Of a stretch of DNA of 64,000 nucleotides, positions 15,793 to 61,337 are shown piece after piece. Position 1 is the stretch's first letter, and every line of letters starts with the position of its first letter. A program made the translations under genes and the position numbers. The notes below the pieces were generated by a model, which saw only the letters and a list, made by a program, of their open reading frames with translations, did no database searches and had not been told where the DNA came from. The stretch is from a virus, in the UHGV virus genome UHGV-0039337; one strand, given 5' to 3'.

Positions 15793-17295
15793 ATGGCAAC
15801 ATTAAAAATAAAACCGTCATCTTACACTACAAACAAATGGAAAAATATAGAAAAAATGTATGATAATGATACCAGTACATACGCATCATGCACTGTTAAC
15901 TTGACTACTAATGATCTATCATGTGATCTTCATATAACTAAACCTTCCCTACCCGATTATTACATTATTAATAACATAAAATTACATTTAGTAGCAAGAG
16001 GTAAAACAATGACAAATGATGGAGGTCATTGGCTTAGAATATATATAAATGAAACTAATCAAATATCAGATTTACATTTAGGATTTTGTGATGGTATTGA
16101 ATATGATATACCATTAACAATAGATCAATATAATCAAATGAATGAAAATAATAGTATGAAATTAACAGCACATAGGGCCAACTCTAGAACTAACATTAAT
16201 ATTTATATATTTGATTTTTATATTGAAATAGATTATACCGATTTAAGTCAAACTATGATAACTGATACAAACGACGATATTTGGATTTATAAAAATGGAA
16301 CAATTACTATAGATATTAATGCTTATCCTAAAACATTAATAAATTGGTCAGTTGATAATCCAAATATAATAGATTTACAACTTATATCCAATGGATTTTC
16401 ATGCAATATAACAGGTAAAGCTGTAGGAGAGTGTATTGTAACTGCAGTTCATTCAGAAAATAGTGAATGTAAAACTCAATTCAAGATTAATGTTAATAAA
16501 TTAATTGAAAATAATTATTGCTCTTTTATATTAAATAACGTTACTTTGAATCATATTATGATAGGGGAACAAAATGTTGCTTTTGTTTATCTTGGAAACA
16601 CTAAAGTATTTGAATATAAAACTCATATACCATACAGTGAGTTTAAATTTAACACTTTAACAAAAGACTTTACCATGCCTTTATACACTAGATTAACTTC
16701 TCAAACATATACAAAAGCATATATAGATCGTCTTGATGGACATATACGTAATTATGCTGCAGCTCCTCCTGGCGAACTTGAGGAAGACGATAGTTCAATA
16801 GCAACAGTAGATTATATACCAGTATATGATAATGAAGAAATAATATTTAATTATCCATCGACTGAATATGGTATAGGATTATGTAGCTATACTGGAATTC
16901 ATGAATATTATAAAACATGGTTTGGTCCTGATAAAGGTTGGGGTAATTACAATATGAGTGATTCTGGTGGAGACGTAACCGGTACTACAACGACATGTAT
17001 TATTCCTGAAGGAGCTAAATACATAAGATGGTGTGGCAACAATATGACTGGAGAACAAATATTTGCTAGACGATATAGCGTACAAAATATCGATTTAATA
17101 CCTTATCCTCCAAATAGTACATATACTTTTAATACAGAATATAAATCTAGCGATGAGTCTGTAGCTGTAATTGAAGGTTCAATGATACGTGCTAAATCTG
17201 CTGGTAATTGCATTATAACTGTTACGCATGGTCAAATTAGTACAAATATTAATTTAACTATAATAGATAATAGCAATGATTTCACAACATATTAA
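15793..17295 (+). CDS. 500-aa protein with two bacterial Ig-like (Big_2-type) domains
   Basis: RBS aaaggagaggtttga. The Big_2-like segments are WSVDNPNIIDLQ...GKAVGECIVTAVHSEN and YKSSDESVAVIEGSMIRAKSAGNCIITVTHGQ. Confidence 0.75.
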   Translation: MATLKIKPSSYTTNKWKNIEKMYDNDTSTYASCTVNLTTNDLSCDLHITKPSLPDYYIINNIKLHLVARGKTMTNDGGHWLRIYINETNQISDLHLGFCDGIEYDIPLTIDQYNQMNENNSMKLTAHRANSRTNINIYIFDFYIEIDYTDLSQTMITDTNDDIWIYKNGTITIDINAYPKTLINWSVDNPNIIDLQLISNGFSCNITGKAVGECIVTAVHSENSECKTQFKINVNKLIENNYCSFILNNVTLNHIMIGEQNVAFVYLGNTKVFEYKTHIPYSEFKFNTLTKDFTMPLYTRLTSQTYTKAYIDRLDGHIRNYAAAPPGELEEDDSSIATVDYIPVYDNEEIIFNYPSTEYGIGLCSYTGIHEYYKTWFGPDKGWGNYNMSDSGGDVTGTTTTCIIPEGAKYIRWCGNNMTGEQIFARRYSVQNIDLIPYPPNSTYTFNTEYKSSDESVAVIEGSMIRAKSAGNCIITVTHGQISTNINLTIIDNSNDFTTY

Positions 17296-17380
17296 TAAAA
17301 ATATAAAAATACAGTTATAAATAATATTTATTTGAAAATAATTAAAAGACAATGTTATGTCAGTTAAGTATTATATTTTA

Positions 17381-17420
17381 ATACACCTTCTTATAATTTA
17401 ATAGGGGGGTGTATTTTATT
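17381..17420 (+). terminator. Putative rho-independent terminator
   Basis: atacaccttc ... gggggtgtat is a 10-bp stem with two G.U pairs and a 14-nt loop, followed by ttttatt. Confidence 0.5.
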
Positions 17421-17520
17421 ATGATTTTTTACAATAATAATAAAGAAGAGGCAGAAAAAAATATGGAACAAGTTTATGAATTACTAGCAGAAATTTTAAT
17501 AGAAAGCGAGAGTGATAATA

Positions 17521-18906
17521 ATGAAAAATCAATTACTTAATATAGCTTATTTGCGTTGTAGTACAGATGACCAAGATGTAGCACATCAATTATCAAGTAT
17601 AGAAAAATTCTGCGAAAGTCAAAATATAGTTATAGACAAAGTAATTAAAGACGAAGGCGTAAGTGCTTATAGTAAAAGTGCATATGAAAGAAAAGGCTTT
17701 AGTGAAGTAATACATTTAGTAGAAGAAAACAAGGTTAATAAACTTATATTATTCGAATCTTCTAGATTATCTAGAAATTTTCATGAAGGACAAAATTTAA
17801 TTAAATTCTTTAGTGACAAAAGAGTGGAGATATATAGTGTAGTAGATGGTGGTATAATTAATGCTACTGAAGTAGATGAATTATTAAATAGTATTAGGTA
17901 TTGGCTTAATCAAAAAGCCAGTAAAGAAACAAGTGATAGAATTAAAAGTCAAAAAAAGTTAGCTAAATCCAAAGGAGAATTTCTGGGACATCCTGTTCCA
18001 CTAGGATTTAAAATAGAAAACAAGCATGAAATTATAGACGAAGATAAGCGTAATTTTATTATTGAATTATTTAATACTTATATTAATCAAAGTTCTAGAG
18101 CATGTATAGATTTATTAAAAACTATAGGAATCAAAGCTAATCATCAAACGCTATTGCAAAGGATAAAAAATGATAAATATATACAAATAGTAGGAAAAGA
18201 TACTTTTAACAAAGCCCAAGAAACCATACAATCTAGAAGATGTAATAAAGGAAATAATACCAGAACTTTAAACAGGAGTAATATTTTATATGAGGGTTTA
18301 TTATACCATCTATGTGGTAGCAAACTTACAATAGATAAAAATAGAAAAGGTGAACCTGTTTTTAGATGTAGAAGATGCAAACATAATTTAGATATAAATA
18401 TTAAAAAATCTTTTATTGGTAATCCTTTAATGAACAATATTAACAAAGATATGTATGAAATAATCAATAATTTAGATAGGAATAAATTAGAAGAGAAGTA
18501 TAAAGAACGTAATAACAAACAACGCTCAATAATATCTTACAAAATACACGAACTAAAAGCATCTATTAAAAGCAAGAAAAAATCTTATGCTTTAGCTAAT
18601 AATAAATTAGAAAAAATATTAATATCTGATATGGATGATTCACTTATATCTACTGTGGCTAATACTGTTAACAATATAAAAAAAGAGATAGAAGAATTAG
18701 AAAAGGAATTAAATATTGAGCAAGAAAAAATAGATACTATAGACGAACAAGCGAAATTTAATGCTGGTTTAATTAATAAAATAATCAACTTAAAAGATGT
18801 GTATATAAACGGAAGTGACAAGAAAAAGAAGGCTATACTTAACTTTATGATAGATAAAGTAATAGTTTATGACATTGATAAGTTTGATATTTTTTTAAAA
18901 ATATGA
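17521..18906 (+). CDS. Large serine recombinase (resolvase/invertase catalytic domain plus recombinase and zinc-ribbon C-terminal domains)
   Basis: N-terminal IAYLRCSTDDQ carries the catalytic Ser. RLSRN and the resolvase fold motifs are present. The C-terminus has the Cys cluster CGSKLT...FRCRRCKHN and a long coiled coil, typical of phiC31/TnpX-type large serine recombinases. ATG at 17521 is preferred over the track's GTG at 17512. Confidence 0.85.
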   Translation: MKNQLLNIAYLRCSTDDQDVAHQLSSIEKFCESQNIVIDKVIKDEGVSAYSKSAYERKGFSEVIHLVEENKVNKLILFESSRLSRNFHEGQNLIKFFSDKRVEIYSVVDGGIINATEVDELLNSIRYWLNQKASKETSDRIKSQKKLAKSKGEFLGHPVPLGFKIENKHEIIDEDKRNFIIELFNTYINQSSRACIDLLKTIGIKANHQTLLQRIKNDKYIQIVGKDTFNKAQETIQSRRCNKGNNTRTLNRSNILYEGLLYHLCGSKLTIDKNRKGEPVFRCRRCKHNLDINIKKSFIGNPLMNNINKDMYEIINNLDRNKLEEKYKERNNKQRSIISYKIHELKASIKSKKKSYALANNKLEKILISDMDDSLISTVANTVNNIKKEIEELEKELNIEQEKIDTIDEQAKFNAGLINKIINLKDVYINGSDKKKKAILNFMIDKVIVYDIDKFDIFLKI

Positions 18907-18984
18907 TGGTTGAGCATTATAATAGTTGTTGCATTTATTATACTTAACCACAAAGGTAATATTTTATAGAAAGGAGCTGATGCA

Positions 18985-20934
18985 ATGGCTAAAAAAGAGC
19001 AGTTTGATGCTTTACAAATAGTAAATGACAGTCTAAAACTTTATGTAAAAGAAAAAATAGCAGAAGCGAAAATATCAGGTGGAGATGTTGATCTTAGTAA
19101 TTATGTTACTAAAATTACAGGTAATGCTAGTCAAATTACTTTTAATGATGGTCAATCTTTTCAAGATAAATTAAATAATGGCACTTTAAAAGGTGATAAA
19201 GGAGACAAAGGTAATGATGGTGCAATTGGACCTCAAGGACCTGCTGGTGAAAAAGGTGACCAAGGTGAAGTAGGGCCTCAAGGACCTGCCGGAGAAAAAG
19301 GAGATACTGGCCCACAAGGACTAGCAGGTGTTGATGGTACACCTGGAGCTAAAGGTGATAAAGGTGAAATTGGAGAACAGGGACCAAAAGGAGATACTGG
19401 ACCTGCCGGTAAAGATGGAGCTGATGGATTAACTACAGCTGTATCTGTTAATGGTGTTACTTATAACCATATTAATGGAGTAATTACATTGCCTAACTAT
19501 CTTAGTCAAATATATAAAACTCCTAAATTTATTACAACAACTACTACTTCATACAAAGATTCGTCAGGTAATACAGGTTTTACAATAGATTTAGGTATTC
19601 CTACGACTTCTGTATTATCTATAGATAGTATAGTTGTTACTGCTAAATATCAAAATACTGATTTAAAAATAACTCATGTAAAATTAGAAAACAATTCAAC
19701 TAATTGGAATTTATTGGCAACAGTAGAGGGATATGATGCTAATCAAAAATATACTGTATCAGTAGCCATATTTAATTATGGAGAAGAATTAACTGTAGCG
19801 GAAGCATTAAATAAATTATTTGCTAAAGTTTATTTAGGTTCTATATCTCCCGCTGGCTCTGGTAGTGGAGAAACTACTACTGAAACATTAACTATAAGCA
19901 ATATAGCAAATATAACACAAAATATTAAAACATCATTCTATATAGAATATAGCACTAATATAGCGGTGACAAAACATGAAGTATCGTGGGATGGTGGAGA
20001 CACATTCTATGATAAAACTGGTGACGTTACTTCTATTGGTAATAATCATAAGTTTTTACATGACGATAAAGCAAATGCTGGAACATATAACATGGCTATA
20101 AGAGTTACAACTGCTAAAGGTACAACTAAGACAAGTAATATATTTACTGTTACTTTAGTAGATAATAGTGAAGATGAATATGCTATGTCTTGTACTTCTG
20201 AATATATTCTAGACAAGATGTATCCAATGCCACAAAACCATGAAGCAGTACCGAGTGGTGTTACTGATACATGGGCTACTCAATCTCGTTGGGAGAATCA
20301 ACAAAGACCTACTGCCGCAGCACATAACTGTGGTCAAGCGAATTGTCCAGGAGCAGTACAATTTAAAGCTTTAGGTGCTTGGGCTAATGTATATAGAGTA
20401 AAAGATTCAGGATTTAGTTCTAATACTGGAGTTGAAATGAGAAACATAAAAGTTTACGGATGGTATAATGGTCAATGGGAAAAAGTACAAGATATGGCTG
20501 TGCCTGATGGTAATTTTTACACTGAAAGTTTCTCTGGAGATAGTAATCAATACTTTAGTGACAGTATTAAAACTACAAGCACTAGTAAAACTATAATTTT
20601 AAGAGAAAAAAATAAGGTTAATGGTGAAAACTGCATGTACCACCCATTCTCAAAAATAAAGAATTTTGATGTAAAATATGAATATGTATATACTTGCATA
20701 GATTTACGTAAGGTCAAATGGGATGAAAGTGGAGTAGATGATAGAGATAGTTCTCATTACTGTGCAAGTTGTGGTGGTGACTGGTGGTTAGCTGAAGGGT
20801 TAACATTTGATAGTAGTTGGCAACATAACAAAGGTGTAGCCCAACCTAAGATAATAGAAATTACAAATAAGTGGAGAAGATTCTCTATGACTACTGTTCC
20901 ACAAGACTGGACAAGTGGGTTTCCCACCAAATAG
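18985..20934 (+). CDS. Collagen-like tail fibre protein (649 aa)
   Basis: RBS gaaaggagctgatgca. The N-terminal [16 protein letters not shown] anchor motif is present. About 78 aa are uninterrupted G-X-Y repeats. It is followed by an [13 protein letters not shown]...VSWDGG domain that is paralogous to a segment of the 21692 protein. Confidence 0.85.
19192..19427 (+). repeat. Collagen-like G-X-Y triplet repeat coding region
   Basis: [79 protein letters not shown]. Confidence 0.9.
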
Positions 20935-21685
20935 TGATAGTGAAAATGAAACTGTAACAGTTGATGCTCTAGAAATATTGCCTTCATTTACTTATGCTGA
21001 TATTCCAGAAGAAGGAACTAAAAATTTATATGTAAAATTATCTAGTAAACCAGATTCAGATATTATAGTAAATACTACTTCATCATCACAATATTTATCT
21101 TGTTCACCTTCTTCATTGACTTTTACAAATACAAATTGGAGCGTATCACAAAAAATAGCTATAAGCTCATTAAAAGATAATAATGAATCTGATGATACAT
21201 ATAATATAACATTGTCATCAAATGATTTATCTTCTAAAGTTTCAATAGAAGTTACTGATGCTTCTAATAGCAATTATGAAATGTTATATGATAATGGTGT
21301 ATTATCTCATGGTACTTTGACTTTAAACAATGCTACAAATTATGGAAGCTATATTACAATAACTCAAAACGAAAATTCTTCTGTTATGATAAGTGGTTAC
21401 CCTATATCATTAAATAAAAATGATAAGGTTTATTTACAGTTAGGATTAGACACATCAGACCCAGCTTCTACATATTCTATAAAAATAGGTCAACTTGGAG
21501 ACTCATCAGCTAATGACATAAGTAATAGTAATATGCTTACAGAGCAACAAATATCAAACGCATTAGATGGTGATAAAATATTAACATATTGGACTGTAGC
21601 AAATGCAGTATCAAATATTGATTTAACCATTACATCATATTATGCTAGAGTTAAAATTTATAAGATATATATTGAAAGGGGGTAG
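20915..21685 (+). CDS. 256-aa lectin-like module, possibly a +1-frame continuation of the 18985 product or an independent or pseudogenised ORF
   Basis: GTG start with no RBS, overlapping the last 20 nt of the upstream gene in the +1 frame. Its C-terminal domain ([17 protein letters not shown]...[15 protein letters not shown]) is paralogous to aa ~750-880 of the 21692 protein, where it is fused in a single polypeptide. Confidence 0.5.
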
Positions 21686-21691
21686 TAATTT

Positions 21692-24600
21692 ATGGCTAAT
21701 CAAATAATAAATTCAAAAAATTTAACTTCAAAAGAAATTCCAGAATTATATATAAGATATTTTAATTCAAAGGTAAAAATAAATACAGATATAACTATTC
21801 CTTATTATGTATCAGATAATACTCAAGCTGAATATCTAAATAATAGTAATGCTAAAAGTTTTACAACTATAGTTACATTTAATTCAAAAGTATTTTCCAG
21901 CACTACTACTGCTGGAGAATTTACTATTAATATAGGGTCTGTATCTACTGTAGGAGAAACTTATTTTAGTATTTATACTATAGATAACAATGGTGTTGCT
22001 AGCGCGGAACAATTTTTTGATATACTAATTATAGATGATACATATCCAATAACTCAAAGTCAAACTTACACTATGACTTCAGCAGATTTATCTACTTACA
22101 ATATAAAAGCTGGAGAGTCTGTATCTATAAGTGATGCTAAATTAAACGGAGCATCTTTAATAAGTTTATTTAAAGGAGTTAAAGATAAAGGTTATAGAAA
22201 AATTATAATGCTTAATAATATCTATATGCTAGATTACCATGGAAATAAAGTTATTCTTCCAGACCAATTTACTGTGGATATGAATGGGGCAACTTTTAAA
22301 GCTACACAATGTAATGATATAAATGTAGCTAATTTAGTAGATTTAAGAGATTGCTTTGATTCTCATGTAATAAACGGAAAACTAATTGGTAATTATGATG
22401 GATTTGATTTTGCGGCAACAAAAACTAATACTAATTATAACATACCTGGAGAAGGATTGGCTGTTGCTGAAATTAATGGTGCTAGATATTCTTCATTTGA
22501 AAATATGGATATGTCTTACTCAGTAGGGTATAACTTAGGAGTTTTCGGTGGAAAAAAATCAGGGTATGTTGGAACTCCAGGAAAATTAGCTTTTAAGAAT
22601 CAATACTATATTGATGCCAATGGAAATCAAGTAAATAGTTCAGATATGTGTACAACTGATATTATAGATATTTCTACTTTATTAGACAGAGGAGAGTTAC
22701 AATGTAGTGTATATTTAGGATATGGAGGATTATCATTAGATAAAGCAGAATTATTTATACATTTTTACGATAGCTCTCAAAAATATCTAAAAACTATAAA
22801 AACTAGACAATATCAAATAGTAAAGATTCCTGCAGGAGCAAATTATGTAAGAATAACTGGGTTTACTTCTGTAACTGAATCTTCTGGTTTAACTATATGT
22901 TGTACAGGACAAGCGACTAATTGTGAATTAATAAATATAAAATCTCATAATACCAGAACTTGTGCTATGCATCCAGGAATTTATAATCATCTGCTTATAA
23001 AAGATTGTACATTCAACAAAGTTGCAGATGAGAATGAATATAAAGTAACTAAATTAGCTTTAGACTTTGAAGATGGATATGAAAACGGAAGAAATTTATT
23101 CTTTATAAATAATGAAGTATATGATGGGACTTCAGCACTAACAGTTCAGAGATGTTTTAATTGTAATGTTATTAAGTGTAGAAATTTTGGATTAGACTTA
23201 AGAGGACATATAAAAGGAGCTTTAATTAAAAATAATTTCTTTAATGAAGGAAGCATATATACAACTAATTTTGATTCCCAATCTCATATGAAATTAGATA
23301 ATAATACATTCTTCAGATCTTTGAAATTTTTAAAATGGGATGATAAAGGAAATTACCCTACAGTAGGATTGACTAATTTAGACTGTAAACAAAATTATCA
23401 AAATAATTCTAATACTAATGTAGTAATAGATAATGCTGTTAATGGAAGTGGTAGTGGAGGAGCTCCATCTCAAACATATTATAATATTATAAATAATATA
23501 TCAAATTGTACTACTGATAATAGTGATAATTTAGTATTGAAAGATTCTTCATATAAAGCTACGATAACTCCAAAGAGTGGATATGATATAACTTCAATAA
23601 CTGTAACTATGGGTGGAGTTGATATAACTTCTACTGCATTATCTGGACATACGATAAATATAGAAAAAGTTACTGGAAATGTTAATATAAATGTAACTAC
23701 TAAAGAAATAGAAAGTTATAGAATAACAAATAATTTAACTAATTGTACAAATTCAAACACTACAAGTAGCATATTAAAGAATAAAAGTTATAGTGGTACT
23801 ATAGTATCTAATGAAGGATATGATTTATATAGTATAACAGTAACAATGGATGGAACCGATATAACTTCATCTTCTGTAAGTGGAAATTCTATAAATGTAT
23901 CTAGTGTAACCGGAGATATTATTATAACAGCTGTATGTACTACAGAAGTGACTGAGGTTATATATGACAACGGTACTCTAAATAAAGGTACATTTAAATT
24001 GAAGAATGCTACTGCTGAGAGTACTTATATCAGAATAAATCAAAATCAAGATTCTTCTGTTACTATAAATGATTATAAATTAACTTTGAATAAAAATGAT
24101 AAAGTTTATATGGATATAGGATTAGATACTGATAGTCCATCAAATGGATATTCTATAAGAATGCTTCAATTAGGAGATTCTTCAGTAAACAATTTTACAA
24201 ATACAAATATGATAAATGAATCTCAAATATCTACTGCTTTAAATGGTAAAGATAAAGTTACTATATATTGGACTATAGCAAACACAGTATCTAATATTGA
24301 TTTAACATTAACATCATATTTTGCTAGAGTTAAAATATTTAAAATTTGGATAGATAAAAATTCTACCGAATCTGGAGGTGGAGGAACCACTCCAGAAACA
24401 TTAACTATTAGTAATATATCCAACATGACACAACCTGCTCAAACAGAATTTTATATAGAATATACTACAAATATAGCTGTAGTAAAACATGAAGTGTCAT
24501 GGGACGGCGGTAACATGTTCTATGATAAAACTAGCGATGTAACTTCTAATGGAACATCATATAAATTTAAACATGATAATGCAGGAACTGCTGGAACATA

Positions 24601-26026
24601 CAAAATGGCTATAAGGGTTACTACTTCAAGTGGAGAAACTGTAACAAGTAATATATTCACAGTTACTTTAATGAATGATAATGGATTAGTTTTCACGCAG
24701 TATAAAAAATTAGATGATGGTGTAGTTACAGATACTACGGATACGAAATACCATAGTACTATTAATAAAATATCAGTAACTCCATCAGCAAAATATACAC
24801 TTGATCTAAAACCTGTAAGTTATGTTTGTATATGTTTCTATGATAATAATGACACTTATTTAGGTAATAATTCAGGGGGATACATAGAAAACCATACATC
24901 AGATTGGTCAGTTGGTTCATTATCAACAACTTTTACTGTGCCAGCTAGTGCTTCATATATTAGAGTATGTGGTACAACTGATGATACACAAGTAACAGGA
25001 ACACTAACTAAATCTTCTTCTGGTACAGGTACAAGTACAAGTGAATTATTAGATAGTGATGGCGCTTACGTTATAGATGATTTCTCAAGTAACACAATAG
25101 ATTCTAATAAATGGTCATATGAATTGGGTTACGTAAGAAATAATGAAACTCAAAGATATACAAATACAAACGCTGAAGTCAACGACGGTATATTAGCTTT
25201 AAGAGGTTTAAAGGCCAGTGATGGTTCATGGACATCTGCATCTATTATTTCAAAAGGTCACTTCGCCTTCATGTATGGTAAAATAGTTGCCAGAGTTAGG
25301 GCTTGTAACTTAAATGGAGCATTTGGAGCATTTTGGACTTTAGGTGATTCATTTGAATTTGGATATAAAGAAAATGGTAGTCCTGATACATTAGGTGAGT
25401 GGTGGGCATACTGTGGTGAGTTTGACGTTATGGAATTTTACAATGGAAAATTGACTTGTGGCACTTTCTTCAATCAAAAGGAAGAAAGTGGACGTGTATG
25501 GTACAACAATTATCCAACTGGTGATTGGCATGAATTCGCAATGGAATGGAAAACTGACGGTACATTAATTTTTACTATTGATGGTAATGAGTTAAGTAGA
25601 ACAAACGCAACAGATAATAGAGCATTCCATATACCACACTTTATACTACTTAATCAAGCAATTGGTGCTAGTGGTGGTACTCCTGATAGTAATACTACAG
25701 AAATCACTCAATACGTTGACTGGGTTAAATATTATCCACTAAGTACCGATAACGTAGTATTAAATTCTAGTGACTTTACACTAGCTGCTATGGATGCTAA
25801 TGATAGTTCACATAACTGTATGGTAAGACCTACTTTTAATGACAACTGTATTAATAAATCATTAACATGGAGTTCTAGTAATGATAGTCTTGTATGGGTT
25901 CATAGTGGATTATGTAGTACTTATGCAGGAGCTAATGGTGAAGTAATAATAACTGCCACTTCACACTCAGGTGTATCAAAACAAATTACATTAACAGTAG
26001 CAGACGGAATACTACGTGCTAAATAA
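21692..26026 (+). CDS. 1444-aa tail fibre/depolymerase with internal tandem Ig-like repeats, a C-terminal GH16 (beta-glucanase/laminarinase-like) domain and a terminal Big_2 domain
   Basis: RBS gaaagggggtagtaattt. The GH16 catalytic signature is GEFDVMEF (E-x-D-x-x-E) in a Con-A-like context (WTSASIISKG...GAFWTLG). The terminal Big_2-like segment is LTWSSSNDSLVWVHSG...GEVIITATSHSG. Confidence 0.85.
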   Translation: MANQIINSKNLTSKEIPELYIRYFNSKVKINTDITIPYYVSDNTQAEYLNNSNAKSFTTIVTFNSKVFSSTTTAGEFTINIGSVSTVGETYFSIYTIDNNGVASAEQFFDILIIDDTYPITQSQTYTMTSADLSTYNIKAGESVSISDAKLNGASLISLFKGVKDKGYRKIIMLNNIYMLDYHGNKVILPDQFTVDMNGATFKATQCNDINVANLVDLRDCFDSHVINGKLIGNYDGFDFAATKTNTNYNIPGEGLAVAEINGARYSSFENMDMSYSVGYNLGVFGGKKSGYVGTPGKLAFKNQYYIDANGNQVNSSDMCTTDIIDISTLLDRGELQCSVYLGYGGLSLDKAELFIHFYDSSQKYLKTIKTRQYQIVKIPAGANYVRITGFTSVTESSGLTICCTGQATNCELINIKSHNTRTCAMHPGIYNHLLIKDCTFNKVADENEYKVTKLALDFEDGYENGRNLFFINNEVYDGTSALTVQRCFNCNVIKCRNFGLDLRGHIKGALIKNNFFNEGSIYTTNFDSQSHMKLDNNTFFRSLKFLKWDDKGNYPTVGLTNLDCKQNYQNNSNTNVVIDNAVNGSGSGGAPSQTYYNIINNISNCTTDNSDNLVLKDSSYKATITPKSGYDITSITVTMGGVDITSTALSGHTINIEKVTGNVNINVTTKEIESYRITNNLTNCTNSNTTSSILKNKSYSGTIVSNEGYDLYSITVTMDGTDITSSSVSGNSINVSSVTGDIIITAVCTTEVTEVIYDNGTLNKGTFKLKNATAESTYIRINQNQDSSVTINDYKLTLNKNDKVYMDIGLDTDSPSNGYSIRMLQLGDSSVNNFTNTNMINESQISTALNGKDKVTIYWTIANTVSNIDLTLTSYFARVKIFKIWIDKNSTESGGGGTTPETLTISNISNMTQPAQTEFYIEYTTNIAVVKHEVSWDGGNMFYDKTSDVTSNGTSYKFKHDNAGTAGTYKMAIRVTTSSGETVTSNIFTVTLMNDNGLVFTQYKKLDDGVVTDTTDTKYHSTINKISVTPSAKYTLDLKPVSYVCICFYDNNDTYLGNNSGGYIENHTSDWSVGSLSTTFTVPASASYIRVCGTTDDTQVTGTLTKSSSGTGTSTSELLDSDGAYVIDDFSSNTIDSNKWSYELGYVRNNETQRYTNTNAEVNDGILALRGLKASDGSWTSASIISKGHFAFMYGKIVARVRACNLNGAFGAFWTLGDSFEFGYKENGSPDTLGEWWAYCGEFDVMEFYNGKLTCGTFFNQKEESGRVWYNNYPTGDWHEFAMEWKTDGTLIFTIDGNELSRTNATDNRAFHIPHFILLNQAIGASGGTPDSNTTEITQYVDWVKYYPLSTDNVVLNSSDFTLAAMDANDSSHNCMVRPTFNDNCINKSLTWSSSNDSLVWVHSGLCSTYAGANGEVIITATSHSGVSKQITLTVADGILRAK

Positions 26027-26120
26027 TAGATGATATCGGCAGTAATAATGAGAAGTAAAATAAAGAAATATTTTATTATATATAGCGTTAATATCATATT
26101 TATAAAATGTTTAATATAAC

Positions 26121-26149
26121 GAGAGGTCTTTTACAGACCTCTTTTATTA
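26121..26149 (+). terminator. Rho-independent terminator
   Basis: agaggtct-tttac-agacctct is a perfect 8-bp stem, followed by tttattat. Confidence 0.75.
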
Positions 26150-26200
26150 TTTATTCACTTACCGGTAATATTTCAATGAATGAAAGGAGTGATAATTCAT

Positions 26201-26713
26201 ATGTCAGATAATTTAATACATCCTTATTACAATCATGGTTATGCCCGTTATGATATAGATATTAATGATGTAATAGCTGGTCTTAAAAAAGCCGGATATA
26301 TATTAGATGATTCAGATAACGATACGGATGATAATTTTGATAATTTAGACTCTAGCTTAAGGCTTGAAGTGTTAAGCACTCGTGGCACACGTTGTAATAG
26401 TACAGGATTTAATACAATATTATACCCTAGATTATATAAAAATAATATAGATATAACAGATGAAGTACCTGTTAGTAATTTTAAATGGAGAAGAGTTAGT
26501 GGCAATAGTGAAGTAGCTCGTCTTGAGGATGCCGAATGGAATTTACGTTATGCTAATGGTTCTAAAGAATGTTACGTTACAAAAGATGATATAAAACGTA
26601 ACAGTACATTTACATGTTTATATGTAGAATATGAATATCAAGATGTAGCTTATGTTAATACAGCGTATAAAGCTTATATAAATAATGCAAATTTAAATGG
26701 TGGTGATAATTAA
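26201..26713 (+). CDS. Hypothetical protein (170 aa)
   Basis: ATG at 26201 with RBS gaaaggagtgataattcat. The track start at 26180 reads through the RBS. The stop overlaps the next start (taATGg). Confidence 0.7.
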   Translation: MSDNLIHPYYNHGYARYDIDINDVIAGLKKAGYILDDSDNDTDDNFDNLDSSLRLEVLSTRGTRCNSTGFNTILYPRLYKNNIDITDEVPVSNFKWRRVSGNSEVARLEDAEWNLRYANGSKECYVTKDDIKRNSTFTCLYVEYEYQDVAYVNTAYKAYINNANLNGGDN

Positions 26714-28197
26714 TGGCTTATGAAAAGGTAAAAGCCACTGCTTCAGTTACAATAGTAGATGAAACTGATGCTTCGATACTTACTGGTAATATGCTTGTAG
26801 TTAAAGGTAGTAAGAATCAGATATATATAACAGGTCAAGGTAATCCTTATTCTCCTGACTGGACTAAAAACAATCTTGTTATTCGTCCTTTCTTACAGGC
26901 TAGTAATATTACTAAAGAAGATTCAACTAATGTTGAATACAATCCTGATTTATTTGATCCTAAAGAATATCCTAATTCTATATCTACTTATGGATATATA
27001 CGTGATATACATTGGTTTATTCGTGATAATGCGGGAGTAGAAAAAGAGTTACTTGATTCTAGTGATTGTTCTTTCTCTTATTCTTACAATATAGATGGTA
27101 TTGCTACTATGTGTACTGATGGAAGACAATTAGTAATTAGGGCTAACATGCTATCTAAAAATACTACTGCAGATATAGTATGTAAATTTAGTTTTTATGA
27201 TCCATTTGCTAATATGTATATTAGTCAGCAACTTGAAACTACTATAATTAATATTGCGAGTGGTCAATCTAACAGTAAACTATTAACATCTTGTGTTAAC
27301 GGTAGCGCAATAACCAATACAGGAAATTCATATATAGATATTATAGCTAAATTTTATGATGATACTGGAGAAATAAATATAGATGAATTAATAAGTAATG
27401 GTGATGCTAACGTATCATGTTTATGGTATATAAGACGTTATGATGGATGGATACTATTAGATCCAACAGAAGCTGGTCAAAGCTCAGCTAATATAGATAC
27501 TATGATGTATAAAATAATGAGAGTTAACTCATATAATGATGTTAGCGGTACATATGAATTAGTCGATTCTAATAATGCAAAAGGTAATGCAGCACTTCGT
27601 ATTTATCCTGCATTTATATCAGGATCTGAAATAATTAAATGTGTATTTACCGATCCTACTGGAGCTAAATATAATTCATTACAAGTAATATATGATGCAA
27701 CTGATCCTACTAGTGTTGAATTATATTGTAGTAACGGTAAAAGACTTAAAAAAGGTAGTATAGAAAATACTACTGTTAAAGCTATCGTTACTTATAAAGG
27801 TAGTCTATTGGAAGATGATAGCCCATTATACAATACAGAATTTGATTATTATTGGTATAAATATACTATAACAGATGATGTATATGTTAATGTATATAAT
27901 GATGCCAACAATAATCTTATAGAGAACGCTGATTTAAACAATCCTATAAAAGGTAAAAGAACTTTATTTATTAATACAGATGCTATTACATCTGATGAAA
28001 AGGAAGCGCGTTTTAGTCTTGATTTAGTTGAATATGGTGCTTTATCTGCTGAAAGTGCACAGGCTAATTATTTAGCCAATGCTGTATCAGAAGAAGATTT
28101 AGCTACTGCTATGGCTGTTAATAATAATATTGGTATGAATGAAAATGATGTGCAAGCTGCTATTGTTACAGCACAAGAATTAAATACTTTAGAGTAG
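26713..28197 (+). CDS. Virion structural protein (494 aa), paralogous N-terminus to the next gene
   Basis: N-terminal MAYEKVKATASVTIVDE versus MAYTALAKASVTIELFE in the 28209 gene. Start is translationally coupled to the upstream stop. Confidence 0.75.
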   Translation: MAYEKVKATASVTIVDETDASILTGNMLVVKGSKNQIYITGQGNPYSPDWTKNNLVIRPFLQASNITKEDSTNVEYNPDLFDPKEYPNSISTYGYIRDIHWFIRDNAGVEKELLDSSDCSFSYSYNIDGIATMCTDGRQLVIRANMLSKNTTADIVCKFSFYDPFANMYISQQLETTIINIASGQSNSKLLTSCVNGSAITNTGNSYIDIIAKFYDDTGEINIDELISNGDANVSCLWYIRRYDGWILLDPTEAGQSSANIDTMMYKIMRVNSYNDVSGTYELVDSNNAKGNAALRIYPAFISGSEIIKCVFTDPTGAKYNSLQVIYDATDPTSVELYCSNGKRLKKGSIENTTVKAIVTYKGSLLEDDSPLYNTEFDYYWYKYTITDDVYVNVYNDANNNLIENADLNNPIKGKRTLFINTDAITSDEKEARFSLDLVEYGALSAESAQANYLANAVSEEDLATAMAVNNNIGMNENDVQAAIVTAQELNTLE

Positions 28198-31905: not shown

Positions 31906-34863
31906 ATGAGCTCACTTAGTCTATCATTTATAACTTCACAAAATACGGTATTTACAGACCCACCTATAATATATTTTGTAATAAGTGCTGAAGATTCAGG
32001 AGGAGAAGCAAGTGTAGATGTTTATACTTCTAAATATAGATCAACATGGATAGGAGCACTGAATGTACCAGTTTCAGAAACAGGGCATGATAGTAAAACA
32101 TTGGTATATTCTATGAGTTCAAGTGTGTGGGATGACTTTATTAGTGGAACTCATACTATATATTTTTTGTATCGTAGCAAAAATGTAACAGATGAACCAC
32201 TTGCAGAATTTACTTTTATAAAAAAATACGACGGTTCTGTCGATCCTAAACCAGATCCTGATCCTAAACCAGATCCTGATCCTAAACCAGATCCTACTGA
32301 AAAATTAGATACAAATTGGGTTGAACCAAACGATGAGTCTATAGTTAAAATGGGTATGCTTACAGATTTTGAATTCAGACTTTCTAGATCTAGAACGTTC
32401 AAAAATGATTGGTATAATAGTGATTATAATAAAGAACCAAGTAATTTTTACAAAACTAGTTGTGACTATTGTAACTATTTATTTACTACTGCCACTAAAT
32501 ATGAAAAAGAACATGACATGGAATGGAAATGGATTAAAACAGAAATAGATGGATCTGAAGCATATATATGTACATCAATGATTCTTATTAGATATCCAAT
32601 AACTTATTATTATGATAAAATTCATAATAAAACTATGTGTATAGATGGAAAATATTATGAATTTAAAATATTAACACGTGATCAATGGACGGATTTATCT
32701 ACTGATATTTTAAAAAAAATAGATTGGAATGGGTTTTATACAATTACCGATACCGACTACAATCCAGGTTCTCATGATTTAAAATATAAAATTACATATG
32801 ATAAAGAAAACGGACTTGATTCTACATATGCAGAATATGATTCGTCTAGCTCAAGTAATACTGGGCTAATTCCAGTTTTATTTCCAATAACAGATCCTAC
32901 TGGATATATCAGTCAATACGGAATTATTCATGATAAAAACGGAAATTTCGGTATAGCATTAAATGATCACGAGGGTTGCTATTATTTTGACAATGTTACT
33001 CATTCTAGTGAAAGTTGTAATTGGTATAAAACAAATATAAATGGTACAGAATTACTAGTTGGTAATGGTGGTATTATGATGTACAGTGCACCTCCCGATG
33101 TTGCTAAAACATATGAAGGCAAAACTGCATATATAAACGGAAATGTGTATAAAATTAGATTATTGTCTGAAGATGATATAAGAAATTTACCAAAATATAT
33201 TATAAAATCCATTAATTTTCTTGATTATAGACATAATGGTGTGAAGCTTTACGTATATACTACCACAACTTATGAAGACAAATGGAATTCGCCTAAATAT
33301 ATAAGATACGATAGTGCTAATGGTAAATTTGAGATACAACCATATGCAGCTAGTTCTATAGATCCGCAACCATATCCTTCTTTTGGATTAATGGTAGGTT
33401 TGGAATATATAGGATCAGCTCCTAATCAAATTAAATTAGGAGCTCTTAAAGATCTCAATAGAGATACAGTTTACTCTCCAAAAAAATATACAAATCAAGA
33501 ACTTTATGGCAATGAGGAAACAGTATATAATTATAATTTTATAGATACTGATGATGAAAGTAAAAAATGGTCTTGGATAGAAACTACTTTAAATGGAGAT
33601 CATATATTAATATCTAAATTTGGTGTAGGTCCAGCTGGATATGAATCTATATTAAATAATACTTATAAATTAATAGGAAGAAAAATTACGCTAGAAAACA
33701 AACAATACGAAATAATTAATTTATCTAGATCTGATGTACAAAAATTAGATTTTAGTGTTTTGAGTAGTATGGATTTTGGTTATAGCAGTAGTGCCCAATG
33801 GCATGATTTTACTAGTGAAATTACACCTTCTCATGATCCTAAATATGTAACTACTTTTAGTTTTTCTTGTTATCGTATTTTTGGAGAATTTGGACTTGAA
33901 TTTGTAGAAAATAACAGAGAAATAACTAGTTATTATGGTAGACATGCGTATTATCCTGTGCTTAAGTTATTGAATCAGCCTCCAACTATTTCAGAACAAG
34001 ATAAGCAACTAGAAGATAAAGTGAAACCATTTACTGTTTATTATTCTGTTGATGATGAAGATGTAGATGATAAGCTTACTATCACAGAAAAATTAAACGG
34101 CACAGTATACAGAACTATAACTAATGCCGTAAGAAAAAGTCAGTATTCATTTGAAATAAACAGTAGTATGTTTTCTAACTTAAAATTATATGAAATGAAT
34201 ACTATAGAGATTACAGTATCTGATGGTATGTTTTCTACAACTAGAACTTATATTTTTAGAAAAACAAATACTGCTCCAACTATTAATTATTCTGGAAGTG
34301 TTAACTTAGGAAGTATAACTTCAAAACCAACTATTGATTATAGCGTACATGATGCTGAAGGTGATGAAATAACGGTTACAGAAAGACTTAACGGTAAAAC
34401 TATACGTACTTTTACTACTACTTCTGATACTTCTTGTACTGTACAAATTTCAGATGATGCATGGCTTTCTTGTGGTAGTGATACAAGTACGGTAGAAATT
34501 ACAGTAAGAGATGATGTTGGAGGATCAAGTAGCAAAACTATTACTTTTAATAGAAATATAGACAGAATAGAAGCAATAACAAAGCCTATCGAAACTACAA
34601 ATGCAGTTACAAAAATATCATTAGAAATAGACTGGGATACAACTAATGCTTCAGGTAAAGTTTTTGTTTGCAATAATGGTTTTGATGATACTCCTACTTG
34701 GGAAGATATGACTACTTCTATCGGTCTTAATAATGCATATACTTTAACTAATAATACTAAAGTTGCCGATAAATGGGGTATAAGCGTTAAAGTCACAATT
34801 AAAAAAGATGAAGGAGCAACTAACGAAGTAAGCTTATATAGTATTAAAGGCACATATCAATAA
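31906..34863 (+). CDS. 985-aa giant structural protein with PDPKPD linker, repeated ~90-aa W.WIKT domains and tandem Ig-like domains
   Basis: RBS tagagaggtgatt. The domains EWKWIKTEIDGSEAYI... and KKWSWIETTLNGDHILI... are shared with the 38232 and 39425 proteins. The C-terminal tandem repeats V.Y.V.D.D.D.LT..E.LNG. are shared with 39425. Confidence 0.8.
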   Translation: MSSLSLSFITSQNTVFTDPPIIYFVISAEDSGGEASVDVYTSKYRSTWIGALNVPVSETGHDSKTLVYSMSSSVWDDFISGTHTIYFLYRSKNVTDEPLAEFTFIKKYDGSVDPKPDPDPKPDPDPKPDPTEKLDTNWVEPNDESIVKMGMLTDFEFRLSRSRTFKNDWYNSDYNKEPSNFYKTSCDYCNYLFTTATKYEKEHDMEWKWIKTEIDGSEAYICTSMILIRYPITYYYDKIHNKTMCIDGKYYEFKILTRDQWTDLSTDILKKIDWNGFYTITDTDYNPGSHDLKYKITYDKENGLDSTYAEYDSSSSSNTGLIPVLFPITDPTGYISQYGIIHDKNGNFGIALNDHEGCYYFDNVTHSSESCNWYKTNINGTELLVGNGGIMMYSAPPDVAKTYEGKTAYINGNVYKIRLLSEDDIRNLPKYIIKSINFLDYRHNGVKLYVYTTTTYEDKWNSPKYIRYDSANGKFEIQPYAASSIDPQPYPSFGLMVGLEYIGSAPNQIKLGALKDLNRDTVYSPKKYTNQELYGNEETVYNYNFIDTDDESKKWSWIETTLNGDHILISKFGVGPAGYESILNNTYKLIGRKITLENKQYEIINLSRSDVQKLDFSVLSSMDFGYSSSAQWHDFTSEITPSHDPKYVTTFSFSCYRIFGEFGLEFVENNREITSYYGRHAYYPVLKLLNQPPTISEQDKQLEDKVKPFTVYYSVDDEDVDDKLTITEKLNGTVYRTITNAVRKSQYSFEINSSMFSNLKLYEMNTIEITVSDGMFSTTRTYIFRKTNTAPTINYSGSVNLGSITSKPTIDYSVHDAEGDEITVTERLNGKTIRTFTTTSDTSCTVQISDDAWLSCGSDTSTVEITVRDDVGGSSSKTITFNRNIDRIEAITKPIETTNAVTKISLEIDWDTTNASGKVFVCNNGFDDTPTWEDMTTSIGLNNAYTLTNNTKVADKWGISVKVTIKKDEGATNEVSLYSIKGTYQ
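32242..32295 (+). repeat. Three perfect 18-bp tandem repeats (gatcctaaaccagatcct) encoding DPKPDP linker units
   Basis: The exact triplication is seen directly in the sequence. Translation is DPKPDPDPKPDPDPKPDP. Confidence 0.95.
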
Positions 34864-39424: not shown

Positions 39425-42400
39425 TTGCATACAACTAAATACGACATAATTAATTCTATTGATGCTGACTTAGGAATGCTAGGTTCTGACGGCACACATT
39501 TATGGAATAGTAATTCTTCAACAATACATATAGGTAATATGGTAAGTTATACTAGCTGTACTTTAATTGCTTTGTTTAAAGGGCTTGATTCCGACAGATT
39601 ATTAGGAGGTCATGCTGCACTTACTGTAAGCATAGATGGAGGTTACGGATCTTTTATTCATAGTTTTATTATAGATCAATCAGATATAAATAATGGACAG
39701 AAATATGTGCAATGTGGTGTTTCTCCAACAAGTTCAGTATATGGTAAAGAATCATCATATAACTTATCAGTAGGAATTACGGTAGTAGATAAAAACGATA
39801 TAGTTGTTTGTGATTCTACAAGATCACTTAATTTTTCTGTTTTTTTTACTGTTCCAACTTATCCTGATCCAGAGCCTGAACCAAAACCACCAGCTAGAGA
39901 GAAACCTAAATATGATGTTAAATTTGGTACTTTATACATAAATAGCAAATCAATGCAACATAATAATTTTTCTAATGAATGTACTAGAGATGAAGGTACC
40001 ATGACTTTTAAAGATACAGTTAAGGGCAAAGAATGGGAATGGGTTAAAGTAGTAACAGATAAAAAAATCATATATGTATCTACAGTTTTTGCAAGAAGAA
40101 ATGTATCTATTGATGAAATAGCACAGGCTAATGACACTATTGTAACGATAGACAAAAATAAATATAAACTTAAAACATTAATAGAATATAATCAATTATG
40201 TTATATAATTAATGATATGATTGCAAATGAAAAAATAGACTTAGAGTATGATGCTGATACTTCAAAATATGATATACCACTTAAAAATATAGAAACGAAT
40301 AATAATTCATCAATTAATGAATATACCGTATGCTCTGTTAATAACCATTACCCATATATACATTATAATCATACTATAAAAGGAAAAGATAAAAATTATG
40401 ACACAGTCATTTTACCTATATTAGAGCCAATAAAAGATGAAGAAGAACCACCTAAAGGTATTGATCTTGGCGTACAAAATGCAGCATTTGGCGTACGTTA
40501 TTTAGCAAAAGATCCTGATAAAGAACAAACATTAACAGTAGTTGAAAAACTAAATGGAAATATAATACAAACAATAAATAATTTCGATAGAAGTCAGCCT
40601 GGTATGGTTAAAATAACAAACGAATTACTTAGACCATTACTGATTGGTTCTATAAATTATATAGAGATAGATGTTTCTGATGGTTTTGTTACAGTTAAAC
40701 AGATATTAACATTTACAAAAGGAAATACTCCACCAGTTGTTACTTGCTATTGCAGTGATGAATTAGGAGAATTAGAAGAAAGACCTGTTATAGAATATTC
40801 CGTTAATGATGTTGATGGAGATGCGGTAACAGTAGTAGAAGAAATAAATGATATACAAACAAGATCATTTACAGCTACATTAAATGAAAAATATACAGCA
40901 GAAATACCTAAAGAGTTTTGGGAAAAATGTGAATATAATAAAAACACATTAAAAATAACAGCTATAGACGCTCGTGAGGCAAAAGATGTTAAAGAAATAA
41001 ACTTTACAAAAGCTAAATTACGTACGGCTTATACTGTTTTTTATGCAGTAGATGGAGATTTAAGACGTGAAAAACTTTTTATATCTATTGATGGCAAAGA
41101 AGAAATGCGTAAATATACTTTTACTGATACTACTTATGACACTGGTATAAATTTTGATTTAAAAGATATATCTGAAGGAGTAGAAATAAAAGCATGGATG
41201 GTAGCTCATAATAATTATGCTACTGAAAAATATAAGAGTAGTAATATATTAACTTTTAAGAAAAGCCTATATGGTAAACCTAATCCTAAAGTTGTACTTA
41301 CTCAAAACCATAGTGAGTATGGCTATTTAAAATTAACATATGATCATGATGATTTAGAGTTTAAAGACAATAAATGGATATCAAAGGATCCTGACAGAGA
41401 ACCTAATGAATTTATAGGTAATGTAGAAATACATTGTTATATTGATGGAAAATATGAAAAACAATATCCTATTGAAAATAATATCATACACGGTGGAGAA
41501 TCTATAACTTATAAAATAAATTTCAATGAAATAAGTCCAGGTTCTCGTAGCCATAAAATACAATATTTAGTTATTATAACTGATATAGAATCAAATAAGA
41601 AAAATATCGATATTGAACCCGGTATGTTTAATGTTGATAATCCTGTGTTAGGTTTGCAAGCAATAGAAGGTTCTCACTATTATAATGATGAACCTCTTGA
41701 TCCTAATGTTAGTTATAGTAATAATAAGTATTCTAATAACGTGTTAGAATATGAATTTTCTCATATAGACTTCATCTGGGATGGAGGTAAAGATCCTGAT
41801 GGAGATAAATGTATATATAATGTGTATATAAAAACACCTGAATCACTTAACGAAACATTAAAAACTGTATCTATATCTAGCAGAACTGGACCACATGCCA
41901 TACAATATAATCGTAAATATAGAATAACAGAAATATACAATGAAAATAATGAAGTTATAGGTTCTAATGTAGAACGTTATGATGATAATAACACTTATAA
42001 ACATATACAAACTAATAAATATGTAGGTATACATATTGATTATTTAAAAGATAGTTTAGATAAGTTTTGGCCTGAAAATGAAAATTACACTATTTACGTA
42101 GAGGCAAGAGATGTTAGAACATGGGATAACAGCTATTATGGATTTGGTGGCGAAGCAGGTAAAGGTATTGAATATCATAGAAGAAAACATGCTTATCCTA
42201 ATGATGTACAGTTGACAATAATACCTAATTTGGTCGATGGATTAGGTGACGGAGAAAAAGGTAGAATTATTGTTTTATATGATCATTCAGAAATAACTGA
42301 TAAATCAGGTATAGTAGATATCTATGCTTATCAAGATAATCAATTAATATGTAAGGTTTATAGCGGAGAATTCTATCCAAAGAAAGAACAAACGATAACT

Positions 42401-56002: not shown

Positions 56003-56587
56003 TTGGATATTTTGAATAATTATATAGAGCTTATGTATGGTTTTGAAGTAACAGATTTATATATTATAAATCAAATCACAAGAATTATAGGATACTTAAA
56101 AGATAATAGTTATAATGATGATGAAATAATGCATTATCTATTACATAACGGTCCTGTTATAAGAGAATCATTATTTAATACACTTACTGATTGTGTATTA
56201 TATTATAATAATGAATTAGTCGTAGAGTCTAAAGCTCCTACATGGCATCCAGAAAAAGAAGAGACCATTACTGAATATTATAGAGAACCTAGATGTAGAT
56301 TTACTATGAACGATCTATTAGATATGTATTATACTAAGTTAAAAGTTCCATATGAGTTACAAGATAGAAAAAGAGATGGTGGCGCTTTAACTCATTTACT
56401 TGACAAATATAAATTTAAGTATTTCACTTCATTAGATTTCATAGTGACTATGATAAAACTAGCTGAGGAGAATAATGAATCACCTAGTTCAGTATTTAAT
56501 ATAGAAAAGTATACAGATGAAGCATTTAATCTATTAAACACATTAGCGCAATATAACAAAATAAGTATAGTGTGGAGAAATAAATAA
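56003..56587 (+). CDS. Hypothetical protein (194 aa; start uncertain, TTG at 56003 or ATG at 56034)
   Basis: Long ORF. The RBS is weak and partly inside the terminator stem. Confidence 0.55.
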   Translation: MDILNNYIELMYGFEVTDLYIINQITRIIGYLKDNSYNDDEIMHYLLHNGPVIRESLFNTLTDCVLYYNNELVVESKAPTWHPEKEETITEYYREPRCRFTMNDLLDMYYTKLKVPYELQDRKRDGGALTHLLDKYKFKYFTSLDFIVTMIKLAEENNESPSSVFNIEKYTDEAFNLLNTLAQYNKISIVWRNK

Positions 56588-57591: not shown

Positions 57592-57605
57592 GGAGAGATG
57601 ATATA

Positions 57606-61079: not shown

Positions 61080-61094
61080 GGTGGTGAAAATATC

Positions 61095-61310: not shown

Positions 61311-61337
61311 TACAAATAAGAAAGGATGTGATGAATC

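Follow-up and report, generated by a model that had tools for sequence, protein, structure and literature searches.

UHGV virus genome UHGV-0039337 is represented here by a stretch of 64,000 nucleotides (the window), which encodes on its + strand a 1444-aa modular tail fibre or tailspike protein. Near the C-terminus of this protein lies a catalytic module of glycoside hydrolase family 16 (GH16), on which the Pfam profile PF00722, the matches to laminarinases in the PDB and the modelled fold all agree. The gene, an uninterrupted open reading frame (ORF), and the features at its 3′ end, including a domain of the immunoglobulin-like (Ig) type, are the following.

21692-26026, + strand: gene for the 1444-aa modular tail fibre or tailspike; uninterrupted ORF, flanking genes match tail-fibre PHROGs
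25067-25741, + strand: GH16 catalytic domain, β-jelly-roll (aa ~1126-1350); PF00722, phmmer against the PDB, AlphaFold and Foldseek
25418-25435, + strand: catalytic motif E1243-x-D1245-x-x-E1248 of the β-bulge type; alignment to CGEIDILE of ZgLamA
25754-26020, + strand: C-terminal Ig domain, probably Big_2-like (aa ~1355-1443); modelled β-sandwich, PF02368 in relatives

Sequence and fold of the GH16 domain

An initial annotation, made from the letters of the sequence, had proposed a GH16 glucanase module at 25050-25750, which corresponds to aa 1120-1353; the strands of our model run over aa 1126-1348. The peptides on which it had drawn are all in place, GEFDVMEF at aa 1242-1249 (nt 25415-25438), WTSASIISKG at 1180-1189, GAFWTLG at 1212-1218 and WHEFAMEW at 1279-1286. 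As the six-residue E-x-D-x-x-E pattern alone could arise by chance, the assignment was tested at the level of the domain. The GH16 profile hit on which the annotation had staked its claim was obtained with the isolated region: aa 1101-1444 scored 37.9 bits against PF00722 (Glyco_hydro_16), above the curated cutoff of 22 (E=1.6e-9). A phmmer search against all PDB chains returned 28 matches, 26 of which are named GH16 enzymes, laminarinases or β-1,3-glucanases and two porphyranases. The best match was the Zobellia laminarinase ZgLamA (4bq1, E=4.4e-19), and signature segments of the ZgLamA type align with those of the fibre (CGEIDILE/CGEFDVME, YTSARLNSK/WTSASIISK, WPAIWTLG/FGAFWTLG and FHVYSLEW/WHEFAMEW).

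When the full-length 1444-aa protein was scanned, hmmscan did not report PF00722 at E≤0.1 and no PHROG matched; the precomputed Pfam field for the exact protein is likewise empty. We set these whole-protein misses aside as evidence against GH16 once the isolated domain had exceeded the Pfam cutoff. That PF00722 was missed in the full-length protein, which is long and rich in N, S and T, appears to be an artefact of HMMER's filters or of bias: cut out, the domain exceeds the curated threshold, and the precomputed table lists PF00722 for close relatives. Fibre proteins that are long and of biased composition are better scanned in pieces.

An AlphaFold2 model of aa 1115-1444, built from a 25-sequence alignment, has a mean predicted local distance difference test (pLDDT) score of 90.1 and a predicted template modelling (pTM) score of 0.88. 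Its two parts are an all-β GH16 domain (model residues 12-234, aa 1126-1348) and, behind it, a second β-sandwich (model residues 241-329, aa 1355-1443). Foldseek against the PDB ranked the Thermotoga enzyme 3azy first (E=6e-18), then PtLam, the Cellulosimicrobium and Nocardiopsis enzymes, ZgLamA and ULam111, with target-normalised TM scores of 0.74-0.81 for the laminarinases. Mixed-linkage glucanases and gut O-glycanases came next, and Bacillus lichenases, carrageenase and porphyranase ranked lower; the best 50 matches are GH16-fold chains, nearly all of them named GH16 enzymes. E1243, D1245 and E1248 all lie on one predicted strand (model residues 129-136). Profile, concanavalin-A-like jelly-roll fold and motif therefore each place the domain in GH16. 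Of the enzymes to which it had initially been likened, the laminarinases remain and the lichenases do not, since the motif is of the laminarinase β-bulge type and the Bacillus lichenases rank far lower in Foldseek. No second GH16 domain was found in the window when its six-frame translation was searched by a family hidden Markov model (HMM) with the heuristic filters off.

The trailing domain had been called Big_2, and this name can be kept in part. The window copy scores 18.5-20.7 bits against PF02368 (Big_2), below the cutoff of 22.8, whereas 10 of the 11 family members match this profile (best E=6e-6) and the domain is modelled as an all-β sandwich with pLDDT of 88-98. A family profile matches the Big_2-type domains of LigA/LigB and intimin (E=0.01-0.2) and the BglH β-1,3-glucanase fragment 7quz (2e-4). 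The C-terminal domain is thus probably a divergent Big_2-like member. Every complete GH16 module has 85 residues or more behind it, save in four short proteins whose sequence stops with the domain or shortly thereafter, and the type-B modules described below align over the Ig region too.

Conservation and the nearest characterised enzymes

In the 25-sequence alignment E1243, D1245 and E1248 are invariant down to 35% identity, as are N1150, E1152, Q1154, Y1156, W1215, W1238 and H1280. The family HMM recovered an intact C-G-E-x-D-x-x-E in every complete module among the retrieved proteins, and the catalytic residues are intact in 51 loci of species-representative bacterial genomes and, among the viral contigs of IMG/VR, in 80 modules from 72 contigs. 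None of the complete related modules that we examined, down to 24% identity, departs from the triad, and His1280, Trp1215 and Trp1238 are also kept in the related bacterial loci. We compared the catalytic domain with 62 IMG/VR relatives of 84-96% protein identity and obtained a median ratio of nonsynonymous to synonymous substitution rates (dN/dS) of 0.046 (range 0.03-0.10, Nei-Gojobori), with dS of ~0.8-1.4. Purifying selection on the GH16 domain is strong, unusually so for a distal fibre module. Such conservation and selection would fit catalysis better than plain binding. The domain is predicted to be an active retaining endo-β-glycanase, in which, by homology, E1243 would serve as the nucleophile, D1245 as its helper and E1248 as the acid/base.

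With the laminarinases (ZgLamA 4bq1, TmLam 3azy, PtLam 8xph and ULam111 5wut) the domain has in common the jelly-roll and the β-bulge E-x-D-x-x-E. It has also kept their N-x-E-x-Q-x-Y and F/W-x-A-x-W-T/M-L-G segments, as well as the His of W/F-H-x-[FY]-x-x-E-W and the Trp that precedes the nucleophile by five residues. It differs from them in sequence (26-30% identity) and in its setting, as it is fused to a phage fibre, whereas the laminarinases are secreted with carbohydrate-binding modules (CBMs); its activity is a predicted one. We take the laminarinases and the other best matches besides the O-glycanases to belong to subfamily GH16_3, a subfamily that also holds mixed-linkage glucanases and endo-β-1,4-galactosidases acting on mucin poly-N-acetyllactosamine (poly-LacNAc). 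The O-glycanases have been placed in GH16_3 as well (PMC7419316). The domain appears close to this subfamily by a nearest-neighbour argument, its best sequence and fold matches being laminarinases, BoGH16MLG and O-glycanases.

GH16_3 is marked by a finger-3 motif of three tryptophans (PMC7419316). The second and third are kept in the fibre (W1215 and W1238), and the first is Phe1211, aromatic yet not identical; in the 51 related bacterial loci this position is Phe in 36 and Trp in 15. W1215 and W1238 are the platform aromatics that favour a β-1,3 link between subsites -2 and -1. The endo-O-glycanases of gut Bacteroides/Akkermansia (6t2n, 6t2r and 6t2o) have the same subfamily-level fold, with the platform aromatics kept, but they score lower than the laminarinases, and the fibre domain gives no sign of galactose selection at subsite -1.

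Fibre scaffold, cassettes and genomic surroundings

Upstream of the GH16 domain the fibre is built of the following parts.

21692-23341, + strand: N-terminal β-sandwich (aa ~17-114), helix and right-handed parallel β-helix (aa ~170-550); AlphaFold model and Foldseek
23471-23962, + strand: two repeat modules in tandem, presumed Ig-like (aa ~594-757), preceded by a linker of low confidence; direct repeat D8
23954-24358, + strand: module (aa 755-889) common to the C-terminus of the neighbouring 256-aa ORF (20915-21685); blastp and DNA repeats D3/D4
24404-24679, + strand: Big_13-like Ig module (aa ~905-996) common to the collagen-like fibre ORF 18985-20934; PF19077, blastp and repeat D1

The N-terminal 620 aa were not recognised by sequence methods, a sequence search against the PDB included, so that the fold of this part was recognised only through modelling. 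The model of aa 1-620, made from 26 homologues, has a mean pLDDT of 84, exceeds 90 over most of aa 10-520 and is confident to about aa 550. Its Foldseek matches (E from 1.6e-7 to 1e-3) include GH110 α-galactosidases (1.6e-7), GH28 exopolygalacturonase, AlgE4 epimerase and iota-carrageenase, and among phage proteins the tailspikes CBA120 TSP3 and LKA1 gp49 and Klebsiella depolymerases. The best 25 have probabilities of 0.93-1.0, with global TM scores of just 0.2-0.4. PF13229 (Beta_helix) is matched in a distant homologue of this part. By its model, the region appears to be a right-handed parallel β-helix of the tailspike type. It carries an acidic cluster, D458-F-E460-D461, of which D458 and E460 do not vary among 26 sequences with identities as low as 23%, and this may be a second, putative catalytic site acting on glycans. 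The view that the GH16 domain is borne on a fibre is reasonable, given the run of tail-fibre PHROGs and the modules common to the collagen-like neighbour; the N-terminal third is a tailspike-like β-helix, not a thin fibre.

The tandem units at aa 594-674 and 676-757 are duplicated in related fibres, and their Big_6 match in the window's fibre is marginal. By blastp, the module at aa 755-889 is 59% identical to the C-terminus of the 256-aa ORF (E=8e-49) and the Big_13-like module 54% identical to aa 236-394 of ORF 18985 (E=1e-37); the latter module matches PF19077 with E=4.5e-4, below the cutoff. Between the two ends of the fibre there is also, besides the disordered linker and the Ig-like and shared modules, a stretch of ~100 aa to which no module was assigned. 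The window contains direct DNA repeats of 70-80% identity, namely 19858-20157 against 24371-24670 (D1, 76%) and 21285-21675 against 23961-24354 (D3 and D4), because the 649-aa collagen-like fibre, the 256-aa ORF and the 1444-aa fibre have protein modules in common (54-59% aa identity). In related phages, modules of these three ORFs are fused into single giant fibres, as in P0016.

The N-terminal region is 64-91% identical across fibres whose C-terminal parts vary, the divergence setting in downstream of the first ~600 residues. In some related fibres the GH16+Ig cassette stands immediately after the β-helix. In many others there are two GH16 domains, one of type A (CGEFDVME) and one of type B (CGEIDIME), in cassettes that are ~34% identical; each GH16 is then followed by its own Ig domain, and both catalytic motifs are intact. 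Fibres of this tandem kind are P0012, P0015-P0020, P0025, P0026 and P0040 among the proteins and L065, L073, L075, L077, L078, L116 and L120 among the loci. Some related fibres carry no GH16, and in some (P0068 and P0074), where no GH16 was found, a calcineurin-like metallophosphatase (PF00149) is present. One relative has, behind its type-B GH16, a C-terminal domain with homology to the end of the 649-aa collagen-like fibre of the window; therefore modules move between neighbouring genes too. Small (pro)phage contigs also carry the cassette by itself, in a complete stand-alone gene of ~365 aa. On a 27-kb contig such a homologue (75% identity) directly follows genes for Baseplate_J, a Mu gp48-like protein and a 587-aa protein taken to be a fibre. 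IMG/VR has at least 108 viral stretches that encode relatives; the ORFs are 620-2140 aa long and the contigs 7-205 kb. The distribution of the GH16+Ig unit is that of a mobile cassette.

We searched for relatives of the gene among cultured phages and cellular genomes. In 50,697 phage records megablast gave no match to the gene, and tblastn with the GH16 region gave a single weak one (27.5% identity), so that no annotation could be transferred from a cultured-phage relative. Among 185,579 representative genomes no relative exceeded 36% identity, and hence they provide no direct prophage or host link. Of the nearest cellular relatives we examined two, both of them ordinary chromosomal GH16 genes, one with CBM4_9 and beside a phosphotransferase system (PTS) transporter gene. 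A viral structure library gave seven matches at E≤1e-10. The two named ones are a pithovirus GH16 protein and a metagenomic siphovirus laminarinase-like protein; four of the five unnamed ones are presumably chlorovirus proteins, judged by their accession series. Public database names for relatives of the fibre are 'laminarinase-like protein [Caudoviricetes sp.]' (DAL56463.1) and 'beta-glucanase (GH16 family)'.

The window has ~29% GC and no tRNAs, almost all of its ORFs of at least 150 aa lie on the + strand, and the cumulative GC skew climbs steadily over the 64 kb. An identical 1444-aa protein is encoded on metagenomic contigs of 270-271 kb and also on short contigs from wastewater and elsewhere, and the 270-271-kb contigs have the gene order of the window: a serine recombinase, the collagen-repeat fibre (649 aa), the 256-aa ORF, the 1444-aa gene and further large ORFs. 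The genes around the fibre gene, from ~10.8 to 50 kb, match PHROGs labelled as tail fibre or tail proteins, and the upstream collagen-repeat fibre has modules in common with the 1444-aa protein.

The large serine recombinase (17512-18906, +) lies directly upstream of the three fibre genes with duplicated modules and matches PF00239 resolvase, phrog_95 integrase (E=3.5e-47) and phrog_125 DNA invertase. It may be the integrase of a temperate jumbo phage or a mobile insertion. Inversion of a fibre segment by this recombinase was tested, and no invertible segment was found in the 10 kb scanned: there are no convincing inverted repeats in 17000-27000, the sole pair being 25 nt and 72% complementary. 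The duplicated modules are direct repeats within co-oriented genes.

Just upstream of the tail-fibre block, an 873-aa protein (948-3569, +) combines a purple-acid-phosphatase N domain with a calcineurin-like metallophosphoesterase domain and may be a virion phosphodiesterase against polymers of the teichoic-acid type. The 2149-aa protein encoded at 3591-10040 (+) has a CotH kinase-like domain (PF08757, E=3e-14) and weak matches to BspA-type LRR_5 and Laminin_G_3, an unusual mix for a phage protein. Two giant proteins, encoded at 31906-34863 (985 aa) and 39425-43780 (1451 aa), both on the + strand, have matches (E of 1e-59 to 2e-30) to the 'Hoc-like head decoration' PHROGs phrog_36643 and phrog_10993, and appear to be Ig-like decoration or fibre modules. 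Genes for primase-like and DnaB-like helicase proteins (56587-58706, +) follow the structural block at a distance of ~2 kb and precede the lysis genes by ~0.8 kb.

The lysis genes at 59479-62252 (+) encode three adjacent peptidoglycan hydrolases, a GH25 muramidase, a glucosaminidase and an Amidase_3+SH3_3 protein. Relatives of the last among deposited phages come mostly from phages of Bacillota, and no organism other than Intestinibacter bartlettii is named among the cellular homologues listed for it (55% identity over 92%). In addition, a stand-alone GH16+Ig protein that is 66% identical to the fibre module is encoded between Amidase_2 and Amidase_3 genes on a contig binned as Intestinibacter sp. 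In view of the lysins and their relatives, of this 66%-identical GH16 and of the ~29% GC of the window, the phage of ~270 kb would have a low-GC Gram-positive host, probably Intestinibacter or a relative in the Peptostreptococcaceae. The assignment to Intestinibacter is a lead, not a proof.

Proposed function, candidate substrates and alternatives

On balance, the protein seems to be a virion fibre or tailspike with an exchangeable distal GH16+Ig cassette that cuts a glycan of the host surface, and we hold this account with a reasonable but limited degree of confidence. The virion setting is supported by the tail-fibre PHROG neighbours, the collagen-repeat fibre upstream, the tailspike-like β-helix and the stand-alone homologue in a baseplate module. 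In our proposal, the N-terminal β-sandwich and β-helix would form a conserved scaffold attached to the virion baseplate or fibre network, and the string of Ig-like and β-sandwich modules would act as spacers between it and the exchangeable GH16 and Big_2-like Ig cassette near the distal end. On contact with a cell, the GH16 domain would cleave a β-1,3- or β-1,4-linked, gluco- or galacto-configured polysaccharide of the host surface, with capsule, secondary cell-wall polysaccharide and biofilm glycan as candidates. The chemistry would be the retaining double displacement of GH16, for which E1243 would provide the nucleophile and E1248 the acid/base. Such cleavage could open a path for the tail to the wall or membrane, and it could also destroy receptors.

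Several points weigh against this account. The finger-3 loop beside the active site is less confident than the rest of the model (pLDDT 66-80), and the predicted catalytic geometry is derived from the sequence alignment and from the placing of the triad on one predicted strand, which also answer, in an indirect way, the superposition check of the catalytic Glu residues that the initial annotation had named. The host call draws on proteins of 55-66% identity and on the binning of short contigs into metagenome-assembled genomes. A literature search on GH16 in tail fibres, receptor-binding proteins or Intestinibacter jumbo phages returned nothing relevant and no GH16 tail-fibre enzyme. The substrate is a guess. 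In the crystallised laminarinase ULam111, Arg71 hydrogen-bonds the sugar (PMC5595797); the fibre has an invariant Ser1184 in place of this sugar-binding Arg, and Phe1211 in place of Trp98. Laminarin itself may therefore not be the substrate. We considered whether these two replacements denote a specificity peculiar to phages, and ruled this out, as both are common to many uncharacterised GH16 proteins of Bacillota; by sequence, Ser1184 and Phe1211 appear to mark a clade rather than a phage invention.

The target had initially been given as β-glucan or galactan, and this pair cannot be narrowed, as the nearest structures are 26-30% identical and two sugar-contacting residues are replaced. Plausible targets on Gram-positive cells, named here as speculation, are β-1,3-glucan capsules of the pneumococcal type 37 and Pediococcus type, and secondary cell-wall polysaccharides with β-1,3/β-1,4-linked Glc, Gal or GalNAc, such as the PS-II type of C. 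difficile. GH16 has no conserved mode of choosing between glucose and galactose, and the galactan/O-glycan specificity of the O-glycanases evolved from β-glucanase ancestors with no simple sequence signature (PMC7419316). A bolder proposal, which we regard as doubtful, is that the GH16+Ig cassette and the type-B GH16 form a dedicated phage-lineage glycanase family with a specificity new to GH16. Its target could be a heteropolymeric secondary cell-wall polysaccharide of Peptostreptococcaceae, possibly containing amino sugars or phosphodiester links. This would account both for the Ser that is invariant where laminarinases have Arg and for the metallophosphoesterase cargo that alternates with GH16 on the same scaffold. 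If it is true, many viral 'laminarinase AMGs' of virome surveys, that is, auxiliary metabolic genes (AMGs), are really virion depolymerases.

Three other explanations, each less likely than cleavage of a host surface glycan by a virion fibre, differ in what the domain acts on or whether it acts at all. A GH16 domain displayed on the virion might turn over glycans other than those of the host, such as the poly-LacNAc of mucin O-glycans or dietary and fungal β-glucans, and thereby aid movement through mucus and food particles or hold on them. The O-glycanase 6t2n is matched in both sequence (E=8e-14) and fold (E=9e-16), the O-glycanase subfamily gained its galactan/O-glycan specificity from β-glucanase ancestors (PMC7419316), the phage comes from gut or wastewater samples, and neighbouring giant proteins have Hoc-like Ig domain matches. 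We nevertheless consider this unlikely. The laminarinases outscore the O-glycanases, stand-alone homologues in baseplate modules or beside peptidoglycan amidases suggest an action on the envelope, and the swapping of cassettes among closely related fibres is the pattern expected of host-range determinants. That the domain is a carbohydrate-binding module which recognises a receptor without turnover is quite unlikely. The two sugar-contacting residues are unlike those of laminarinases, and receptor-binding proteins of phages that infect Gram-positive bacteria commonly contain lectin-like β-sandwich modules, both of which would suit binding; but in more than 200 modules, with identities as low as 24%, the nucleophile, the helper Asp, the acid/base Glu and the His are strictly kept, dN/dS is ~0.05, and binding alone would not require the whole triad.

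Viral GH16 genes have been classed as AMGs in virome studies (PMC11126160; PMC10465536), and the domain might accordingly be read as a laminarinase for the use of β-glucan by the host. Besides these studies (PMC11126160; PMC10465536), this reading has in its favour that the closest relatives in cells are chromosomal GH16 genes of the ordinary kind, one with CBM4_9 beside a PTS transporter gene. It is very improbable in view of the in-frame fusion to an 1100-residue fibre scaffold with a tailspike-like β-helix, inside a tail-fibre block. Moreover, the identity to any GH16 in the 185,579 representative genomes is at most 36%, and thus the domain is not a recent metabolic gene of host origin. The viral 'laminarinase-like' GH16 genes and the GH16 proteins of chloroviruses and a pithovirus belong to the same Pfam family; the domain described here differs from the viral GH16 AMG genes in lying within a structural fibre rather than in a free-standing metabolic gene.

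As a cutter of host surface glycans, judged from sequence and model, the fibre would belong to the well-known functional class of virion-borne polysaccharide depolymerases, a kind of device already familiar in phages. Like the tailspike and tail-fibre depolymerases CBA120 TSP3, LKA1 gp49 and those against Klebsiella capsules, it combines an enzyme in a tail-fibre module with an N-terminal right-handed β-helix, and its modules are swapped between related phages; its location on the virion is inferred from the genomic setting. In the classical depolymerases the β-helix is the variable catalytic or receptor-binding part, whereas here the β-helix is constant and the variable distal cargo is a GH16 jelly-roll. 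We did not find a jelly-roll GH16 catalytic fold for phage depolymerases in the literature searched. Less usual are thus the jelly-roll catalytic fold, the constant β-helix with a variable, small enzyme cargo and the tandem GH16 types in relatives.

If the domain is active on the host envelope, GH16 would join the catalytic folds of virion-borne depolymerases. The fibre design would then be one of a constant β-helix scaffold with swapped cassettes, namely GH16 type A, GH16 type B and the metallophosphatase. Activity would also advise caution in counting viral GH16 genes as metabolic AMGs before their fusion to structural proteins has been checked. Finally, it would provide a compact, monomeric and easily expressed enzyme of ~330 aa against the surface glycans of an abundant, little-studied group of gut clostridia.

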